A DNA stretch of 64,000 bases from Candidatus Eiseniibacteriota bacterium (GCA_963762255.1 CAVXKA010000003.1:512001-576000), one strand, 5' to 3'. Positions 19,052 to 28,229 are shown, numbered from the stretch's first letter. The notes: generated by a model not told the origin, from the letters alone. Numbers and translations: made by a program.

Positions 19052-20185
19052 CTAGACGAGAGCCTGGCGCAAGTCCTCGACGAGATCTTCGGCGTCCTCG
19101 CACCCCACCGAGAAGCGGATGAGGCCGTCGGTGAGCCCGACCTTGAGCCGCTCGGCTTCCGGCACCGACGCGTGGGTCATGGACGCGGGATGGCTGACCA
19201 GACTCTCGACCCCGCCCAGGCTTTCGGCCAGCGAGAAGAGCTTGAACCTGGGCAGCACGCGACGGGCCTCCTCGATGCCCCCCACGTCCGCCGACACCAT
19301 GCCGCCGAAGCCGCGCATTTGCCGCCGGGCGAGCTCGTGCTGCGGATGCGACGTGAGCCCCGGGTAGATCACGCGCTTCACGCGCGGGTGCGTCTCGAGA
19401 AATCGCGCCGCCTCCATCGCGTTGGCGTTGTGCCGCTCCATGCGCAGGGCCAGCGTCTTGATGCCGCGCAACGCCAGCCAGCAGTCGAAGGGCCCCGGCA
19501 CCGCGCCCGCCGCGTTCTGCAGGAACCGCAGTCGTGCCGCGATCGCCTCGTCGTTGGTGGCCACCACGCCGCCCACCATGTCGCTGTGCCCGTTCAGGTA
19601 CTTGGTGCTGGAGTGCACGACGATCGTCGCCCCCAGGGTCAGCGGGTTCTGAAAGTACGGGCTCATGAACGTGTTGTCGACGGCTAGCGTCACCCCGCGC
19701 GCGCGGCACACTTCCGCCACCGCGGGGATATCGCTCAGGATCATGACCGGGTTGGAGGGCGTCTCGAGGACGAGCAGCTTGGTGTTGGGACGGATCGCCC
19801 TGGCCACCGTGGCCGGGTCTTTGGTGGACACCGTGTCGTAGGCCATGCCCATCGGCTTCATGACCTTGTCCAGAAGCCGGAAGGTGCCGCCGTAGAGGTT
19901 GTCCCCCAGAAGCACGTGGTCGCCTTCGGCCATGAGCTGCACCACGGCGTGCATCGCGGCCATGCCGCTCGAGTACGCGATGCCGTGCCTGGCTTTCTCG
20001 AGAGCGGCCACGTTTCGCTCCCAGGCCTCGCGGGTCGGGTTCTGGGTGCGCGCGTATTCGTAGCCCTTGTGCTTGCCCAGCCCCTCTTGCACGTACGTCG
20101 AGGTCTGGTAGATGGGAACCATCACCGCGCCGGTGGTGGGATCCGGCGACTGCCCGGCGTGGATGGCGTCGGTGGAGAAGCCCAT
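19052..20185 (-). CDS. Cystathionine gamma-lyase/synthase (PLP)
   Basis: PIYQTSTY, YARTQNPTR, VDNTF, HSSTKYLNGHSD and AESLGGVESL. Confidence 0.93.
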   Translation of the reverse strand: MGFSTDAIHAGQSPDPTTGAVMVPIYQTSTYVQEGLGKHKGYEYARTQNPTREAWERNVAALEKARHGIAYSSGMAAMHAVVQLMAEGDHVLLGDNLYGGTFRLLDKVMKPMGMAYDTVSTKDPATVARAIRPNTKLLVLETPSNPVMILSDIPAVAEVCRARGVTLAVDNTFMSPYFQNPLTLGATIVVHSSTKYLNGHSDMVGGVVATNDEAIAARLRFLQNAAGAVPGPFDCWLALRGIKTLALRMERHNANAMEAARFLETHPRVKRVIYPGLTSHPQHELARRQMRGFGGMVSADVGGIEEARRVLPRFKLFSLAESLGGVESLVSHPASMTHASVPEAERLKVGLTDGLIRFSVGCEDAEDLVEDLRQALV

Positions 20186-20212
20186 GGTGCCTCCTGTGGC
20201 GATCGATGCGTG

Positions 20213-21589
20213 TTAGGTGGACACGAAGCTCAAGACGTCGATGCGGGTCAGTATCCCCACCGCATGGTCACCGTCGTAGGCGAGCACGGCCGGGTTGCGG
20301 TCGGCGAGGGCGCGGATCGCGGTTTTCACCGAGTCGCGCACCTCGATCCGGGGCAGCGGCGCCTCCATCACCTCGCCGGTTCGCTTCTCGAGCACCTTGG
20401 GATCCTCGAACACCAGGCGCATGAGCGCGTTCTCGTTGACCGTCCCGACGATCTTTCCCTCGCGCACCACCGGGATCACCGAGATGTCGTGGGCGCGGAT
20501 GAGATCGATCGCCTCCCGCACCGGATGCCCGGCGTCCACGGTCACCAGGGCGGGGATGGTGTGCTTCTTGGCGGAGAGCACTTCGCGCACCGCCACCGCC
20601 TCCGGCTCCAGGAAGCCGTTGTCCCGCATCCAGGCGTCGTTGTACATCTTGGAGAGGTAGCGCTCGCCGGTGTCGGGGAGGAGCACGACCGCTACGTCGG
20701 TGGGCTTCGAGTCTTTCAATGCCTTGTACGCTCCGGCCAGCGCGGAGCCGCAGGAGCCGCCGGCGAGGATGCCCTCTTCGCGCGAGAGACGACGCGCAGC
20801 CAGGAAGCTCTCCTTGTCGCCCACCTCCACGATGTCGTCGATGTACTGAAAGTGGGTGGTGGTGGGGATGATGTCCTCGCCGATGCCCTCGACCTTGTAA
20901 GGACGCGCCTCCCCCATTTGCTTGGAGTAGTAGAACGTGCGCAGTATCGAACCCTCGGGATCCACCCCGATCACCTTGACCCGGGGGTTCTTCTCTTTGA
21001 GATAGCGCCCGATCCCGCTGATCGTGCCCCCGGTGCCGATGCCGGCGATGAAATGGGTGATGTGTCCGGCCGTCTGGCGCCAGATCTCGGGGCCTGTCGT
21101 CTCGTAGTGGGCTTGCGGGTTGGACGGGTTGTGATACTGGTTGGTGTGGCAGGCGCCCGGGGTCTCGCGTACGATCCGCTCGGCCACCTTGTAGAAGGAC
21201 TCGGGGGAGTCGGGGGGGACCGCGGTCGGGGTCACCACCACCTCTGCGCCGAGGGCCTTGAGAAGGTTGATCTTCTCGAGGCTCATCTTGTCCGGCATCG
21301 TGAAGATGCCGCGGTAGCCGAGCACGGCGCAGGCCACTGCCAGCCCCACGCCGGTGTTGCCCGAGGTGCATTCCACCACGGTCCCGCCCGGCTTGAGCTT
21401 CCCATCCGCAACGGCCTGGTTGATCATCGCCACCCCGATGCGGTCCTTCACGCTCCCGCCCGGATTGAACGACTCCACCTTGGCCAGGAGGTCCGCCGCC
21501 ATGCCCTGTTTCACCCGACGCAACCGGACGAGCGGTGTGTTGCCGATCAGATCGAGGATGCTGTCCCTGACGTCCATGTCCGCGTGCAT
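20213..21589 (-). CDS. cbs: Cystathionine beta-synthase with C-terminal CBS domains
   Basis: IGNTPLV, NPGGSVKDRIG, TSGNTG, GTGGT, PYKVEGIG and YLSKMYNDAWM, plus a CBS pair. Confidence 0.9.
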   Translation of the reverse strand: MHADMDVRDSILDLIGNTPLVRLRRVKQGMAADLLAKVESFNPGGSVKDRIGVAMINQAVADGKLKPGGTVVECTSGNTGVGLAVACAVLGYRGIFTMPDKMSLEKINLLKALGAEVVVTPTAVPPDSPESFYKVAERIVRETPGACHTNQYHNPSNPQAHYETTGPEIWRQTAGHITHFIAGIGTGGTISGIGRYLKEKNPRVKVIGVDPEGSILRTFYYSKQMGEARPYKVEGIGEDIIPTTTHFQYIDDIVEVGDKESFLAARRLSREEGILAGGSCGSALAGAYKALKDSKPTDVAVVLLPDTGERYLSKMYNDAWMRDNGFLEPEAVAVREVLSAKKHTIPALVTVDAGHPVREAIDLIRAHDISVIPVVREGKIVGTVNENALMRLVFEDPKVLEKRTGEVMEAPLPRIEVRDSVKTAIRALADRNPAVLAYDGDHAVGILTRIDVLSFVST

Positions 21590-21637
21590 CGGCTCGCTCC
21601 CCCGTTGTCGTTCCCCGGAACGGTCGAAAGCCGGGTT

Positions 21638-21666
21638 ACGTTAAGCGCCCCCCGAGGGCGGGTCAA
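21638..21666 (-). promoter_or_regulatory. Sigma70-type promoter upstream of cbs
   Basis: Minus strand TTGACC-17 bp-TAACGT. Confidence 0.5.
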
Positions 21667-21694
21667 GCACCCCGGCGGCGCGGCCGGGGCCCGG

Positions 21695-21731
21695 AAACAG
21701 GAAGCCCCTCCGACCCAACGGCCGGAAGGGC
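21695..21731 (-). terminator. Intrinsic terminator after the selenoprotein cytochrome gene
   Basis: Minus strand hairpin GCCCTTCCGGCC-GTTG-GGTCGGAGGGGC followed by TTCCTGTTT. Confidence 0.6.
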
Positions 21732-21762
21732 GTCTGTGGCGAATCCACCCGACCGGAGCGGC

Positions 21763-23160
21763 CTAGTGCACCTTCGTGATCGCGGTGGTGTAGTTGAAGT
21801 TCTTGCCGAACTCCCCGGTGTGACAGTTCGCGCAGATGTCCTCGGTCGGCTTCTTCAGCATCGCCGTGGTGCCATGGAAGGTCCCCATACCGTGGCAGCT
21901 CTCGCACTGCACGTTGCGCATGTCCGCCTTGACCGCGTCCTTGGCGCCATCCTTGGCCGCCGAGGCGCCGGCATCCGTCGCGGCTGCCTGCTCGTACCCG
22001 GTGGCCTCGCCCCAGCCGGTGACGTGGCACTCCACGCACTCCTTCTGGTTCTGCTTCTTGTCCTTCACCAGGGTGTCCCACGCGCGGGCGTGCGGTGTCT
22101 GCGACCACTTGGCGAAGATGTCGCTGTGACAGCGGGCGCACATCTCGGAACCCACGTACTTCTCTGTTCCCTGATTGACCGCGGCCTTGGCCGCGTTCTT
22201 ACGCATCTCCGCTGTTTTGCGCGCGTTGAAATCGGACTCCCACTTGGTGATGACCAGATCCAGCGCGGGATCCTTCGCCACGGTCTCGCCCAGGGGCTTG
22301 CCCTCGCCGTTGTAGTCGGCGATCTTCCCGTCCGCGCCAAGGGTCAGCTCGAGCGAACAAAGGTACTGGCCGCGATTGCCGGGACGGATCACCAGAGTCT
22401 GGCCGACACGGTCGGGATTGAACTGATAGCCCGGGTTGTGGCCCACAATCACCACGTCCATGCCGGGGACCTCGTCGACGAAGCGCTTGGCATCGCCGGG
22501 GCCCTCGTGCATGAGCACCACCAGGATGTCGCACTGCCCACGAAGCTTGGGAAGCACCCGCTGGAGCGCCACCTTCGAGTCCTCAAAGGTGAAGTCGTCC
22601 TTCGTCTGCAGACCCCGGGTCACGTTGAAGTTGTAGTAGGAGCCGCCCGTCGTGCCGGTCACGCCGAAGCGCACACCCCCCTTGTCGATCACCACCGACT
22701 CCGGGAAGAGGTGCTTGCCCGACTTGTCCATCACGTTCGCCGAAACCACCTTCACCTGAGGCTGGGTGGCGAGGAGCTTCTTGAGGGCATCGACCCCCTG
22801 CATCAACTCCGCGTCCCCCGGGGTGACGGCGTCGTACTTCATCTCCCCCATCATGTCCCAGATGAACTGGGTCTTGTCCCAGGGGTTGAAGTCCTTGTTG
22901 TCGCCCCAGTTCCCGGCATCGACGACCAGGGTGGGATTCCCTTTTGCCAGATCGCTCTTGATCAAGGCCGCCCTCCGGGCGAGCCCGCCTAGTTGCTTCT
23001 TGTGTCACCCACAGGGGGACGTTTCGCCGTTGTTGGAGGCGGTGGAGAGGATCGTCGCGGTGCGCGCCTTGCTCTCGCTCCGGGCCGCCGGAAGGGCCAG
23101 CAGGAGAGCACCGACGACCGCGGTCAAGGATCCGAGCCACAGGAGTTTGCGCCAGAGCAT
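21763..23160 (-). CDS. Putative selenoprotein: UshA/5'-nucleotidase-like domain fused to a tetraheme cytochrome c (465 aa, Sec at residue 52)
   Basis: ORFs 23005-23202 and 21763-22965 are in one frame, separated only by TGA at 23005-23007 (ETSPCG-U-HKKQLGGLARRAALIK). GAGGAG RBS and a signal peptide at ATG 23160; CARCH, CVECH, CESCH and CANCH motifs. Confidence 0.85.
22963..22992 (-). promoter_or_regulatory. Candidate bacterial SECIS hairpin
   Basis: Downstream of the UGA: AGGC-GGGC-UCGCCC-GGA-GGGCGG-CCU. The G-containing apical loop starts 28 nt after the UGA. Confidence 0.6.
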
Positions 23161-23231
23161 GAAGTTTTCTCCTCGGAGCGGGATCAACGTGTGAAGCCCC
23201 ACCCAAGCCGCATGGCGGGCAGAGACGCGCG

Positions 23232-23240
23232 AGTATAGCA
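23232..23240 (-). promoter_or_regulatory. Extended -10 promoter of the selenoprotein gene
   Basis: Minus strand TGcTATACT, about 70 bp upstream of ATG 23160. Confidence 0.5.
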
Positions 23241-23344
23241 GGGTCCCGAAACCCGATGCACAGGCTATCTACCGAGGCAGTCCGGCGGGGATTCCCCGGG
23301 GAACCGCAACCGGGATCGGCGGTTCGGGCCGGAGACGGGGGAGG

Positions 23345-26300
23345 TCAGGGGAGGGCCGAGGTTATCGCGCCGAATCCGCTGTAGCCCCGCTGCCCCTGCT
23401 CGTACTTGATCTCCTGAAGGGCCTTCACGTTGATCCGGAAGTAGAAGGTCGTCTCGTCCCCCAGCTTGCTCCGGGTGAACATCGCCTCCCAGCAGTGCAG
23501 ATCCCGATGGAGGCTCAAGGATTCCCCCACGACCTTGCGCGCGGTGACGTCCAGATTGGAGTTGTAGCTCACCGACCAGTTCTTCGTGATCTGAACCCCG
23601 AACTGGCCGTTCACCGTCGTCGCCGTCTCGATCCGATCGAGGGACCGCGAACCGTTGGTCGAGAAGGTGAAACCGGCGTTCCAGGACAGGGGCCGGGCGT
23701 CCCCCTGCTGCCCCCCCATCCCGTCGAGAGCGCTCCTTCCCATATCCGCCCCTATCTGACTGTACTCGCTGGTGCTTCGGTCCGGCGCGCCCATCGACAC
23801 CCCACCTCCTCCCTCCTCCCCGCCGGGAAGCGTTCCTGAGAACCCGAACATCGCGCGTCCCTGATAGCTCGAGAACCGGAAGCGCCGGTAGGGGTCGTGG
23901 ACGGAGTTGAAGCTCAGGTCCACCCCCAGAATGCGCGGGAGATCGACACTGGAGTTCACCAGGCTCCATCCTTTCCCACCCTCGTCGGAAGCGAGAAAGT
24001 CGTAGCCGCTCGAGAGCGACCAGTTGATGAGGTCGACCTTGCGGACTTCCTCCCCGACCTTGACCTTCCCCTGGAAGCCGTTTCGCAGGCGCAGGTCGAG
24101 TCGCCGCCGCTCGAAGGAGGAGATGCCGGGGAACCGGTTGCGGCGGACCCCCGCCGTGTCCCGGTACGCGAGCCCGCTGAACTCAGGCGAGTAGGTGAGG
24201 CTTGCCGAGGGCTCCACCGTATGGCGGAGCGCAACCAGCGGACCCACCCCGCCGAAAGTCCCGTAGAACGCCGTCCCCGTCGTCAGCGAAGCCGACCACA
24301 GCGCAGCCCGACGAAAGGCCTTCACGGTGTCATCCGCGCTGAACTCGCGGTCCACCCAGTGCTCGGTGAGGTTGATCGACGGTTGAAGGTTGAATGCGTT
24401 CCAGAACCGGCGCGAGTCGCTCACGTTGAAGGTGTGCTGCGCCAGACTCGATCGCTCCTTGAGGATCTGATAGAGGGTATCGACCGGGGCGGTGAAGAGC
24501 GTGGTCTTCTCGCGTTCGGTGCGCGTGGAGGAACCGCGGGAGCTGAGCGAGTAGCGCACACTGCTCAGGAACGGGAGTCGCCCTCCCACGCCCTTCTCGT
24601 CGGCCTTCCGCCCTATCGTCCGCGAGTTCATCGAGAACGAATAACTGGGAAGGACCTCCTGAAGGAGGATCTCGTCGGTTCCGTCCCCTCGCTCCACCGC
24701 CAGGTTCTGAGTGCGGTTGGCGGTGAGGCTCAAGCTTCCTCCCCAACCGAAGCTACGCGACGCCGAGAGATCGCTCTTCAGGATCCGGTCGAGCCGCTGA
24801 CCAATGTCGGTACCGAGAGGCTCTTCAGAGCGGAAAGCGGCGGTGCGAAACTCGGGGCGGCCGGTGATGCGCCACTCGCCCAGCGTCATTTGATGGTAGC
24901 CGGTCAGGTCGTACCCACTCGAGGTCGAGCCGAGCGTACGCGCGAAGTTGACGTTGCCATCCATGAGATAGCGCTTGGCGTAACGGGCCTGTACGTGCCC
25001 CACGAAGCGCGACGGGCGCTCGGTGTAGTCCATGCTTGCGGTGAAGTCGTAGTACTCGCTCGCCGCCCAGTAGTAGCCGAGGTTGCTGAAAGAGCCCCCG
25101 GCGCTGCCGGTGAGACCGAAGTCGAAGTTGGCGGTCAGGAGACCGGACTGGCGTCCCTTGCGAATCGAGAAGACGTAGAACGGCAGCGCGAGGACCGGGA
25201 TGTCCCGGATGTAGAGAGTCACCGGCTTCGCCACCACCTTGTCCTTGAGGTAGATCCGCATGCGGTGGCTGGTGAAGTGGAAGTGGGGCGCCTTGTCGTG
25301 CTCCACGTTGTCGCAACTCGTGTAGCTCCCCCCGCGGGCAAGGAACTCGTCGTCGCCGACCTTGCGCAACCGCTCCGCATAGATGTAGCCGTCCTCGGCC
25401 TTGGTTCGCCCGCCGCCGATCGTTCCCTCGCGCGAGTCGAGGTTGTAGTCCATGCTCGCGCCCACGATATCGCGCTGCTCGCCGGGGGTCTTTTCGACCA
25501 GTACCGGCTTGTCCTCCGCCTCCAGGTAGCGGCGGTCGGTGAAGAAGCGCACCTTTCCCGCGGTGAGGGTGAGAGCGCCGTAGTCGAGTTTGGTGTTGCC
25601 GAAGAGGTCGACCACGCGGTCGTCCATCGCGTACTCCACCACGTCGGCTTCGTAGATCACCTTCTCCGCGCCGACCGACGCCGTGCGAAGCGTGTCGGAT
25701 TGGGTTGAGTCCGGGGCGCCCGGCTCGATCCCGGCAGGAATCGCGCCCGCCGTGTCGACCTCCGCGGGCAACGCGCCCGCCGTGTCGACCTCCGCGGGTG
25801 GCGCGCCGATCGAGTCGGCCGCTGCGACCGAGTCCGCGCCCTCATCGCGGAAGGCATACACCCCCTTGGCGTGCCCGCTGATTCGCACACGGTCGATGGC
25901 GCCGGCATCGAAGAAGATGGTGATGGTGTCGCCTTGGGCGGCGTTGGTGCCCGCGCCCTTCCCCGCGTCGGATGTCGCCGGGGAGTAGGTGCTGGAGGCG
26001 TTCCCGACGGTGACCACGCGCTCGGTCTCGCCGTCGACGAAGTACATGACGAGCGAGTCGCCACGCACCGTGCTGACCTCACCCACGCGCAGGCTGTCGA
26101 TCGGGGCATGGCGCACGGCCGCATGGCCGTGCACTTCGGCCCGCGTGAGCGCTTCGTCGTCGTCGAAGTGCAGGAGCAGCGTATCGCCGGTCAGCGTGCC
26201 GTCCCGCTCGAGCACGCGCGGCGCTCCGAGCAAGAGCGCGCGATGTTCCGCGCGGCGGTAGCTCGCGGAGTCGGATTGGGCGGTCACCCCGCCGCGCACG

Positions 26301-27250
26301 ACGCGGACGTTTCCCGAAGCCTCCGCGTCGCCCCCCGGCGCCACCCACAGGCGGTCGCCGGTGATGCGGGTGATGGTGCCGGTGCCGCTGGTAAGAACGA
26401 GGGCGGGAACCTCGGTGACGCGGGCGCGATCGGTGCGCAGATCGTAAATGAGACGCTCGCCGCGCAACTGAGACGCGCCGTCTTCCTCGGTGACGTAGAC
26501 GTCTCCGGTGAGAAGCACGTCGTCCCGGTTGCGCCGCCACTCGGCTTCGTTTGCGCGCATCCGCCGGTCGCCGCGCCGCCCGTGCATGTTGCCCGTCATG
26601 GTCATCACGCGTCCGGTGCGATCGTAGCTGGCGCGATCGGACCAGAGGCGAAGCGAATCGGCGGGCGAATCGACCTCGACATCCCCCTCCGCGATCAGCG
26701 TCTCCGAATCGCGCAAGTAGGTCGCGCGCGCGCTGCGCCCTCGGGTTTCGCCTTCGCTGAACGCGACCTCGCCATCGAACTCCGCTCGCCCCTCATCGAC
26801 GAGGTAGCGCGCGGTGGGCGACGTAATGGTCAGCTCGCCGTGGGTGATGACCGGATTCGTGATGTCGATGATCTGACCCTGAGGACCCGTGCTCGAGATG
26901 AGGGGATACCCGGTGATCTCCCAGAGATCGGAACTGGGGGCGGCCGTCTCCGCCGAGGCGCTGGAGTCGGCGGGAGCGGAATCGACGGGAGCGGTGACGC
27001 GGGGAGCCGCGATCGCCGCCGCGATCGAGTCGGCGGTCGCGCTGTCGGCCGGTCCGCGTTGATACGGGATCACATCCAGGTGCGGCTCGCGCTCGGGAGG
27101 CTGAAGCCCCGCGGCCAGCGGCCGCGACTCTGCGGTCGCGCTGGGGGGCGCATCGAGGGCCGAGCCGGGAGGCTCTTGGAACCAGGCGCACCCCGATAGC
27201 GCGAGAAGGCCGAGCGCCGCGGCGCCTAGGCGCGTCCGACCCCAACCCAT
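23345..27250 (-). CDS. lptD: LptD-like LPS assembly protein with extended N-terminal LptA/OstA beta-jellyroll repeats
   Basis: Lipobox LSGC; repeated OstA-like segments; GSYTSC...PHFHF, PVLALPFYVFSIRKGRQSGLL and C-terminal RDLHCWE...FYFRINVK. Confidence 0.85.
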   Translation of the reverse strand: MGWGRTRLGAAALGLLALSGCAWFQEPPGSALDAPPSATAESRPLAAGLQPPEREPHLDVIPYQRGPADSATADSIAAAIAAPRVTAPVDSAPADSSASAETAAPSSDLWEITGYPLISSTGPQGQIIDITNPVITHGELTITSPTARYLVDEGRAEFDGEVAFSEGETRGRSARATYLRDSETLIAEGDVEVDSPADSLRLWSDRASYDRTGRVMTMTGNMHGRRGDRRMRANEAEWRRNRDDVLLTGDVYVTEEDGASQLRGERLIYDLRTDRARVTEVPALVLTSGTGTITRITGDRLWVAPGGDAEASGNVRVVRGGVTAQSDSASYRRAEHRALLLGAPRVLERDGTLTGDTLLLHFDDDEALTRAEVHGHAAVRHAPIDSLRVGEVSTVRGDSLVMYFVDGETERVVTVGNASSTYSPATSDAGKGAGTNAAQGDTITIFFDAGAIDRVRISGHAKGVYAFRDEGADSVAAADSIGAPPAEVDTAGALPAEVDTAGAIPAGIEPGAPDSTQSDTLRTASVGAEKVIYEADVVEYAMDDRVVDLFGNTKLDYGALTLTAGKVRFFTDRRYLEAEDKPVLVEKTPGEQRDIVGASMDYNLDSREGTIGGGRTKAEDGYIYAERLRKVGDDEFLARGGSYTSCDNVEHDKAPHFHFTSHRMRIYLKDKVVAKPVTLYIRDIPVLALPFYVFSIRKGRQSGLLTANFDFGLTGSAGGSFSNLGYYWAASEYYDFTASMDYTERPSRFVGHVQARYAKRYLMDGNVNFARTLGSTSSGYDLTGYHQMTLGEWRITGRPEFRTAAFRSEEPLGTDIGQRLDRILKSDLSASRSFGWGGSLSLTANRTQNLAVERGDGTDEILLQEVLPSYSFSMNSRTIGRKADEKGVGGRLPFLSSVRYSLSSRGSSTRTEREKTTLFTAPVDTLYQILKERSSLAQHTFNVSDSRRFWNAFNLQPSINLTEHWVDREFSADDTVKAFRRAALWSASLTTGTAFYGTFGGVGPLVALRHTVEPSASLTYSPEFSGLAYRDTAGVRRNRFPGISSFERRRLDLRLRNGFQGKVKVGEEVRKVDLINWSLSSGYDFLASDEGGKGWSLVNSSVDLPRILGVDLSFNSVHDPYRRFRFSSYQGRAMFGFSGTLPGGEEGGGGVSMGAPDRSTSEYSQIGADMGRSALDGMGGQQGDARPLSWNAGFTFSTNGSRSLDRIETATTVNGQFGVQITKNWSVSYNSNLDVTARKVVGESLSLHRDLHCWEAMFTRSKLGDETTFYFRINVKALQEIKYEQGQRGYSGFGAITSALP
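25742..25798. repeat. 30-bp-period in-frame tandem duplication within the lptD linker (PAEVDTAGA x2)
   Basis: CGCGCCCGCCGTGTCGACCTCCGCGGG at 25742 and 25772. Confidence 0.85.
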
Positions 27251-27263
27251 GTGCGGGCCTGAT

Positions 27264-28229
27264 TCAACGAGGGGCAGTGGCCGGTTCCTCCAGGAGCAAC
27301 GCGGCCGCTCCCAAGAGCCCCGCCTCGGGGCCGAGCCCCGCCGGAAGCACCAGCGGGGGCGCGAAGCGCGCCACCAACGACCGGGCACCCAGATGCTCGC
27401 GGGCCGGATCGAGGATCCAGCCGCCCGCGAGCGCGACCCCGCCGCCGATGACGATCCGCTCCGGATTGAAGATGTTGACCAGGGTCACCAGAAGACCTCC
27501 GAGCGCGTGCCCGGCGTCGGTGAGAACCTCGCGCGCGACCGCGCTTCCGCGCCCTGCCGCTTCGCTCACCGTCCGCGACGTGAGGGGATCCGCCTGCGCG
27601 AGGAGGGGGTCGGCGGCGAATCCGACGTGCCGGCGTGCGGCCTCCACGATGTCGTTCGTCCCTACGTACCGCTCCGCGCAGCCGCGGTTCCCGCAGGCGC
27701 AGGGAATCCCGTCCAGCACCACCGTGGCGTGGCCGGGTTCGCCGGCGAATCCCTGGGCGCCGCGCACGAGAAGTCCGTCGGCGATGGCGGCGCCGCCGAT
27801 GCCGGTGCCGAGGGTAAGAAACACCGCGTTCTGCGCGCGCTCGCCAGCCCCCCATCGCCATTCGGCCAGCGCGAACGCGTTGACGTCGTTGTCGACGCGG
27901 GCGGGCATGCCGAGGCGCCGCGAGAGCCCTTCGCCGATCCGCGCGCCTTCCCACGCGGGAAGGTTGGGAGAGAATCGGATGGTGCCGGTGCGTCGATCGA
28001 TCAGTCCGGCCGAGCCGACCCCCACCCCTTCCGCCGCGTCCCATCCCGCGGCGGCGGTGAGCCGGCGCAGCGCATCGGCGACTTCGTCCAGCACCGCCTC
28101 CGGATCGCGTCCGGCGTGCCCGTGCAGGACATCGTGCGCGGCCAAGTGCGGCGCGTCGGAGATCTCCACGGCGCCGGTCTTGATCCCGGTGCCGCCGATG
28201 TCGACGGCAAGCAGGCGCCGGGGCTTCAA
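27264..28229 (-). CDS. ROK family sugar kinase (glucokinase-like)
   Basis: AVDIGGT, DNDVNAFALAE, TLGTGIGG and GEPGH...CACGNRGCAE. Confidence 0.9.
   Translation of the reverse strand: MKPRRLLAVDIGGTGIKTGAVEISDAPHLAAHDVLHGHAGRDPEAVLDEVADALRRLTAAAGWDAAEGVGVGSAGLIDRRTGTIRFSPNLPAWEGARIGEGLSRRLGMPARVDNDVNAFALAEWRWGAGERAQNAVFLTLGTGIGGAAIADGLLVRGAQGFAGEPGHATVVLDGIPCACGNRGCAERYVGTNDIVEAARRHVGFAADPLLAQADPLTSRTVSEAAGRGSAVAREVLTDAGHALGGLLVTLVNIFNPERIVIGGGVALAGGWILDPAREHLGARSLVARFAPPLVLPAGLGPEAGLLGAAALLLEEPATAPR

Follow-up and report, generated by a model that had tools for sequence, protein, structure and literature searches.

A predicted UshA-like selenoprotein with a C-terminal tetraheme cytochrome, encoded across an in-frame UGA in a Candidatus Eiseniibacteriota genome

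The minus-strand segment 23160..21763 of a 64,000-nucleotide stretch of DNA from a Candidatus Eiseniibacteriota bacterium (GCA_963762255.1, CAVXKA010000003.1:512001-576000; the whole stretch is called the window here) is very probably one gene, encoding a selenoprotein of 465 residues that belongs to the catalogued family NF041198, and this identification forms part of the best overall explanation of our observations. The gene (21763..23160, minus strand) comprises 465 codons and a TAG stop codon (21763-21765), and its predicted product is a UshA-like PCGU selenoprotein that ends in a tetraheme cytochrome domain. A previous sequence-only reading of the window had claimed that two open reading frames share one frame here and are separated only by the TGA at 23005-23007, and re-examination bore this out. 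ORF calling gives two minus-strand ORFs in a single frame, 23005..23202 (65 aa) and 21763..22965 (400 aa). Translation from the ATG at 23160, with TGA rendered as U, runs for 465 residues with a single non-standard codon, U52 at 23005-23007, and no other stop or frameshift is found within the 465 codons. The immediate context of U52 is SPCG-U-HKKQLGGLARRA, in which SPCGU represents residues 48-52, and the longer context is ...NNGETSPCG-U-HKKQLGGLARRAALIK... On the basis of the frame and the family alignment, the UGA (23005..23007, minus strand) is assigned as selenocysteine codon 52, within an invariant Cys50-Gly51-Sec52.

The part of the gene upstream of the UGA had also been credited with the ribosome-binding site and the signal peptide. 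Both can be read from the sequence: a Shine-Dalgarno-like GAGGAG (23169..23174, minus strand) lies 8 nt before the ATG, and approximately residues 1-27 (23080..23160, minus strand), which run from MLWRK through a hydrophobic core to PAARS, have by eye the look of a Sec-type signal peptide. The signal-peptide region (residues 1-30) is modelled by AlphaFold2 (AF2) with pLDDT below 60. We infer that the protein is exported via this Sec-type signal peptide. Just past the stop codon is a terminator-like hairpin of 12 pairs (9 of them G-C) followed by a T-rich tail (21704..21731, minus strand), which is a consensus match only, two such hairpins having been found in the region against 0.9 expected. 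No sigma-70-like promoter was found in a scan of 21400-23500, a consensus that is uninformative for this lineage. Elsewhere in the window TGA is an ordinary stop codon, as had been stated: it terminates six of the 13 Pfam-backed genes checked (10.8-33.5 kb), including the directly upstream lptD, and the selenoprotein gene alone has an inner in-frame TGA.

If the TGA were instead a true stop, the locus would produce a 51-residue exported peptide and a separate 400-aa cytochrome initiated from a TTG at 22965. Standard ORF calling yields exactly these two ORFs, and the closest public database entries, with names such as 'CXXCH cytochrome family protein' and 'hypothetical protein', are 351-411 aa long and cover 77-88% of the query, as if called from downstream of the UGA. 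However, heme c attachment needs export, for which the 400-aa product would lack a signal peptide, and the 51 upstream residues with their invariant PCG are kept in frame in 72 distinct genes. The true-stop explanation is further opposed by 14 uninterrupted genes with Cys in the codon-52 column, by a covarying hairpin that follows the UGA and is confined to TGA-bearing genes, and by a complete selenocysteine machinery, all described below; we regard it as extremely unlikely.

To place codon 52 in its family context, we draw on a scan of species-representative genomes, which identified 575 confirmed relatives, the best 80 of which were kept as loci. All fetched loci together contained 108 matches to the motif, and 91 of these have at least three in-frame CxxCH motifs downstream (nearly all have four). 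In these 91 full-length genes, the homolog check at residue 52 that the sequence-only reading had put forward returned U in 77 and C in 14; the remaining 17 matches (8 U, 9 C) come from shorter paralogues or from genes that run off a contig. Counted as distinct homologous genes, 72 have TGA in the codon-52 column and 14 have Cys. Eleven full-length database homologues read PCGC here, with Cys opposite U52. When 61 genomes of the same class were searched in six frames, 60 gave a family match, often in several copies; one of the 61 (G054) is unpublished, and no conclusion depends on that genome by itself. The best match contains exactly one in-frame TGA in 58 of these 60 genomes, and in the remaining two (G024 and G030) a lower-ranked match has one in-frame TGA. 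In all 20 loci fetched from same-class genomes, the TGA occurs as PCG-U.

The host genome, assembled in three contigs and 93.6% complete, was searched for the selenocysteine machinery, another check that had been suggested, and selA (541.4 bits), selB (365.9 bits), selD (385.9 bits) and a tRNA-Sec were all found. All four matches exceed their curated cut-offs, and the selD gene itself has one in-frame TGA. The tRNA scores 67.5 bits against Rfam RF01852 and is called by ARAGORN as SeC with anticodon tca. A UGA/Cys alignment, a downstream SECIS stem-loop and the full set of selA, selB, selC and selD, the features by which bacterial selenoprotein genes are recognized, are all present here.

The sequence-only reading had also raised the prospect that the TGA is a sequencing error. 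Contigs from three other sequencing runs span 23005-23007, and among the matches listed there is no difference at this codon; together with the recurrence of the TGA in 58 of the 60 related genomes, each assembled independently, and a frame that is otherwise intact, this argues against a sequencing or assembly error (a true TGC or TGT) and against a pseudogene. Nothing specific favors either beyond the incompleteness of the assembly, and we consider this explanation vanishingly unlikely. A contig from a metatranscriptome library also bridges the TGA (22151-23176, with 12 differences in 1026 nt), although contaminating DNA is a possible source of it. Given the recurrence of the TGA, the PCGC homologues and the contigs from other runs, a sequencing error is, like a true stop, very unlikely. 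From the comparative data, UGA-52 is in all likelihood translated as selenocysteine by means of the SelA, SelB, SelD and tRNA-Sec encoded in this genome.

A candidate recoding signal follows the UGA. Folding of the window sequence, combined with covariation, identifies a SECIS-type hairpin with a 9-bp stem and a GGA loop, 19 nt after the UGA (22965..22986, minus strand), inside the codons for G-L-A-R-R-A-A, where the conserved GLARRA helix begins. The window hairpin taken alone does not exceed shuffled sequence in stability (z = 0.31), as expected in such G+C-rich DNA, so the SECIS assignment rests on comparative data. In an alignment of the 57 nt from the UGA onward in 69 distinct Sec genes, the helix corresponds to columns 23-31 and 35-43, and 91.3% of its cells are paired, versus 28-55% in a slid control with the 3' arm moved by one to three columns. 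Two-sided changes occur in 52 cells, and none of 500 shuffles reaches the observed values. The most variable pair, at columns 27 and 39 (GC 33, CG 19, UG 7, GU 6, UA 2, AU 1), links the third base of a Leu codon with that of an Ala codon; because the variation joins synonymous third positions, it points to selection on the RNA rather than on the protein. With the register counted from the GG codons, at least eight of the nine pairs can form in 65 of 72 Sec genes versus none of 13 Cys genes (one further Cys gene, containing an N, was left out), and one of the hairpin-less Cys genes encodes the identical peptide GGLARRAT. The loop starts 28 nt past the UGA and its first bases are GG, a spacing and loop that would fit the published model of the bacterial SECIS element. 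The 9-bp hairpin is consistent with a bacterial recoding signal.

The sequence-only reading had named UshA-like proteins with a CxU motif as a reported selenoprotein family, and the profile search agrees. With Cys substituted for Sec, the query matches NCBIfam NF041198 ('UshA_like_PCGU') at 276.1 bits against a curated cut-off of 275, a margin of 1.1 bits. The match covers both halves of the protein, at profile positions 9-269 for the N-terminal half and 347-519 for the cytochrome; in the six-frame genome search the halves are scored apart, at 137.6 and 127.1 bits, each under the cut-off. Given that the cytochrome half is itself matched by NF041198, the multiheme fusion is part of the curated family and not peculiar to this gene. 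The gene shares with the family PCG-U, both halves and the alternation of Sec and Cys at the same column, and nothing essential differs; judged by its profile score, it is a divergent branch of NF041198. The family appears as 'COG0737, UshA-like', with the motif CxU and 76 sequences, in the table of selenoprotein families from the GOS data (Zhang & Gladyshev 2008, PMC2398784), and the discussion of that paper counts it with the major families in which Cys-based redox motifs are not conserved. A 2022 review (PMC9312934) and a 2026 review (PMC13188914) also include it in their tables, the latter giving the accession NF041198. Neither these table entries nor the 2008 discussion passage mentions a heme domain or a function. 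Our literature search found NF041198 in the 2026 review only, nothing that combines a nucleotidase with selenocysteine and multiple hemes, and no experiment on any family member.

A related family, NF049981 (UshA-like (seleno)protein family 2), is also a nucleotidase-like selenoprotein, but it is matched weakly, at 55 bits against a cut-off of 140, and its model of 262 positions has no cytochrome half. Its motif is CxxU, versus CxU in NF041198 (table in the 2026 review, PMC13188914).

Three structural parts can be distinguished downstream of the signal peptide. Approximately residues 31-297 (22270..23070, minus strand) adopt, according to AF2 and Foldseek, a 5'-nucleotidase-type metallophosphoesterase fold with non-canonical metal-ligand positions. 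A long linker helix follows at residues 298-330 (22171..22269, minus strand; DSSP on the AF2 model), and residues 331-465 (21766..22170, minus strand) form a cytochrome c554-like tetraheme domain according to Pfam PF13435 and the family profile. Four CxxCH motifs had been reported downstream of the UGA, and all four were recovered on the minus strand, at residues 341-345 (22126-22140), 375-379 (22024-22038), 419-423 (21892-21906) and 443-447 (21820-21834). In 88 aligned sequences, the Cys and His residues of motifs 1, 3 and 4 never vary, and motif 2 comes close to this (at least 90%). An AF2 model built on the same number of aligned sequences has a mean pLDDT of 89.3. Its top Foldseek matches in the PDB are CD73 and bacterial 5'-nucleotidases (E ~1e-23), then UshA and SoxB, in alignments of about 310-340 residues that correspond to the metallophosphoesterase domain plus the long helix. 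The cytochrome domain scores 44.1 bits against Pfam PF13435 (Cytochrome_C554; cut-off 20.8), and the family profile matches the PDB entry for Nitrosomonas cytochrome c554, 1bvb, with an E value of 5.6e-17. The tetraheme CxxCH domains are thus alike, but c554 is a free-standing electron carrier, whereas here the domain is fused to a Sec-bearing domain of catalytic type.

The N-terminal fold and the long interdomain helix are shared with the true 5'-nucleotidases E. coli UshA, human CD73 and E. coli c4898 (3ivd), at a TM score of ~0.5 and an E value of ~1e-23, as are a GG-x-A-R helix start, a 'DAG' strand and an 'AN' motif. Unlike in those proteins, N84, D116-A117 and P243 here replace dimetal or catalytic residues, a Cys-Gly-Sec insertion follows strand 1, and a tetraheme cytochrome replaces the C-terminal domain. 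No Pfam match to the 5'-nucleotidase C-terminal domain was found at E <= 0.01, residues 331-465 being the cytochrome domain; we infer that the latter stands where genuine 5'-nucleotidases have their nucleotide-binding C-terminal domain. SoxB (TIGR04486; PDB 2wdc and 4uwq) belongs to the same superfamily and is the second-best NCBIfam match (E 2.6e-23). It resembles the window protein in being periplasmic and is associated with sulfur chemistry, but it is not known to carry a Cys-x-Sec motif or a heme domain, and its activity depends on a di-manganese site.

The canonical metal-ligand motifs of metallophosphoesterases are DxH, GD, GNHE, H and GHxH. Aligned with the E. coli nucleotidase 3ivd, the window protein has DAGN84 for DAGD, G-D116-A117-E for G-N-H-E, and G-H241-N-P243 for G-H-A-H, and it retains D116, E118, H218 and H241. 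Across 88 distinct family members, the 3ivd ligand positions are most often occupied by D (51), E (49), R (44), H (54), H (55) and P (25). Motif I was mapped by eye to positions 42 and 44 (S42 and N44 in the window protein), where D42 is present in 52 of 88 members and His is not one of the four commonest residues. Around the former metal site, D84 is found in 51 members, H218 in 54, H241 in 55, and E or D at position 118 in all 88. The residues shared by all 88 are C50, G51, U/C52, G58, G59, R62, G83, N142 and D235, and no metal-ligand position is invariant.

These observations bear on whether the protein could be a working periplasmic 5'-nucleotidase or phosphodiesterase, or a SoxB-type thiosulfohydrolase, that has simply acquired an extra cytochrome domain. 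Its kinship to 5'-nucleotidases and SoxB in fold and sequence would fit such a role. Against it, the window protein lacks the motif I His, both the Asn and the His of GNHE, and the final His of GHxH, and neither His nor Asn is among the four commonest family residues at the positions of these missing ligands. The matches to Pfam Metallophos (20.6 bits, under a cut-off of 21.5) and to SoxB TIGR04486 (82.1 bits against 550) also fall short, and the protein does not show the two hallmarks of a functional 5'-nucleotidase or UshA: the metal-ligand motifs are altered, and the search gave no C-terminal substrate-binding domain. A hydrolase of this kind is very improbable.

The poor conservation of the canonical metal ligands of phosphoesterases favors a Cys/Sec redox site connected to hemes. 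On the simplest reading, a phosphoesterase scaffold has given up its dimetal chemistry and acquired a Cys-Gly-Sec site that is wired to four hemes. Cys50-Gly-Sec52 would sit in the loop after the first strand of the metallophosphoesterase fold, where Cys50 and Sec52 may form a redox-active selenenylsulfide or a chalcogen-transfer site, and the four c-type hemes would carry electrons to or from this site. The protein would then be a periplasmic oxidoreductase for a sulfur, selenium or thiol/disulfide substrate, and not a phosphoesterase. The description in the sequence-only reading of a 'self-contained oxidoreductase' is accordingly a reasonable, if predictive, one, and it is strengthened by the loss of the phosphoesterase metal ligands. 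As for the mechanism itself, a Cys50/Sec52 redox or chalcogen-transfer site coupled to four hemes, we hold the chances to be evenly poised.

A different role for the same two residues has to be weighed. Selenocysteine ligates Ni in [NiFeSe] hydrogenase and Mo or W in formate dehydrogenase, and by analogy Cys50 and Sec52 could be ligands of a metal in a remodelled phosphoesterase pocket, with the heme chain feeding a metal centre and not a selenenylsulfide. That most members still have some residues of the former metal site (E/D118 in 88 of 88, H241 in 55 of 88) is consistent with this proposal, as is the retention of D116, E118, H218 and H241 in the window protein, and the Cys-x-Sec appears, from a by-eye reading of the motifs, within the loop that bears the first metal ligands in 5'-nucleotidases. 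However, Cys-Gly-Sec is invariant, whereas the surviving ligand positions in general vary, and C-x-C or C-x-U spacing is a known redox-active arrangement. We consider metal ligation by Cys50 and Sec52 possible, though rather unlikely.

The genomic neighborhood offers a lead. The next gene upstream, on the same strand, is lptD (23345..27388, minus strand; LptD_2 type, 1347 aa; Pfam PF19838, 185.5 bits), whose TGA stop lies 184 nt before the selenoprotein ATG, and a genome search found no other LptD-type match in this genome. In 28 of 70 related loci an LptD_2 gene precedes the family gene in the same orientation; among the 55 loci with at least 3 kb of upstream sequence the count is 24, which leaves 31 of these informative loci without an lptD neighbor. 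All 28 lptD-adjacent loci are Sec forms, and their records are titled as Candidatus Eisenbacteria, Krumholzibacteriota/-ia, Fibrobacteraceae and others. In 22 LptD proteins longer than 1000 aa, including that of the window, there are just two conserved Cys, about 600 residues apart (692 in 22 of 22 and 1299 in 20 of 22, in window numbering). Searches of this genome, which is 93.6% complete, gave no DsbA, Thioredoxin_4, DsbB or VKOR. Among the 61 same-class genomes, DsbB was found in none and VKOR in 11, as against 60 with the selenoprotein family.

The adjacency to lptD, the Cys pair of LptD and the lack of matches to Dsb and VKOR proteins hint at a link to envelope thiol/disulfide chemistry, although the relatives compared share ancestry and do not count as independent cases. 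Based on these three observations and on the presence of the family in 60 of 61 genomes versus DsbB in none and VKOR in 11, the heme-wired Cys/Sec protein might, in bacteria of the Eisenbacteria/Krumholzibacteriota type, be a catalyst that makes or repairs periplasmic disulfides, with LptD as a main client. We regard this specific proposal as a long shot. If it were true, electrons from substrate thiols would exit through the four hemes to the respiratory chain.

Other features of the neighborhood and of gene content were considered as clues to function. The DsbB/VKOR profile was set aside as a discriminator, since the selenoprotein family is near-universal with or without VKOR and related genomes are not independent cases. 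In four to five of 70 loci, genes for rhodanese, MauE/DoxX and DUF1573 lie between lptD and the selenoprotein gene. Downstream, past the terminator-like hairpin, are genes for a cystathionine beta-synthase-like protein (20213-21589) and a Cys/Met PLP enzyme (19052-20185), and mgtE. These sulfur-amino-acid genes were given little weight as a functional clue: Cys_Met_Meta_PP is downstream in only six of 70 loci, and the hairpin lies between.

What the gene offers is a well-founded correction of annotation, and its product does not represent a new kind of protein; the family, cytochrome fusion included, is already curated as NF041198, and it is present in the selenoprotein literature, as far as the entries in those papers go, from 2008 to 2026. 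Gene callers break the protein at the UGA and so leave both its signal peptide and its Cys-Gly-Sec site out of the annotation. The family is widespread, with 575 confirmed relatives and a presence in nearly every same-class genome, and most of its members use the costly selenocysteine. The degenerate phosphoesterase site, the hairpin within the GLARRA codons and the lptD neighborhood provide handles for a first biochemical study.

The genome of the window (G000) carries further members of the UshA-like PCGU family. A second full-length paralogue is encoded on the forward strand of contig C1 (G000:C1:732080-733315, locus L046), with its own in-frame TGA in the motif APCGU, an open frame of 481 codons and four CxxCH heme c motifs. 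A third copy, on the same strand (G000:C1:592912-593884, locus L047), has the PCGU motif and is 67-69% identical to the window protein, but the reading frame of the match changes past '...VVTPGD' and the cytochrome part is absent; this copy is likely to be a frameshifted pseudogene or the product of an assembly error. The selD gene, on the reverse strand of contig C2 (G000:C2:841489-842421), also includes one in-frame TGA, and the selenophosphate synthetase of this genome is, judging from its sequence, probably a selenoprotein as well.

Another paralogue has no stop codon and ends short of the cytochrome domain (G000:C1:306695-307600, reverse strand; 58% identity over residues 14-315). Its equivalents in four related genomes, G007 (C29:1231770-1232696), G002 (C571:3321-4265), G005 (C263:1907-2842) and G003 (C14:3121149-3122051), each form a tandem copy just 5' of the Sec-containing gene. 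Unlike these tandem pairs, the stop-free paralogue in G000 lies on a different contig from the window's Sec-containing gene.

The nearest public database homologues (P0002-P0028, at least 50% identity) are 351-411 amino acids long with a query coverage of 77-88%, a short length consistent with gene callers having placed the start after the TGA. Where names are given, these entries are called 'CXXCH cytochrome family protein', 'hypothetical protein' or '5'-nucleotidase family'.

On its upstream side, the selenoprotein gene of the window adjoins lptD (LptD_2 type; 23345-27388, reverse strand), the only lptD of the genome. The order lptD, then selenoprotein gene, is common to 28 of the 70 related loci (within L051-L124), which by their record titles represent several lineages. 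Two cysteines, about 600 residues apart, are conserved across the LptD proteins encoded 5' of these selenoprotein genes. A search of the window's genome for DsbA, DsbB and VKOR found none of them.

Directly 3' of the selenoprotein gene, on the reverse strand, are a cystathionine beta-synthase-like gene (PALP and CBS domains) and a gene for a Cys/Met-metabolism PLP enzyme (together at window positions 19052-21589); a Cys_Met_Meta_PP gene is likewise located 3' of the selenoprotein gene in six of the 70 related loci. At loci L065, L068 and L081, genes for MauE/DoxX, rhodanese and DUF1573 proteins are found directly 5' of the selenoprotein gene, and in L065 and L081 they are placed between it and an upstream lptD. 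Such clusters occur in four to five of the 70 loci, and these neighbors hint at thiol or sulfur chemistry.
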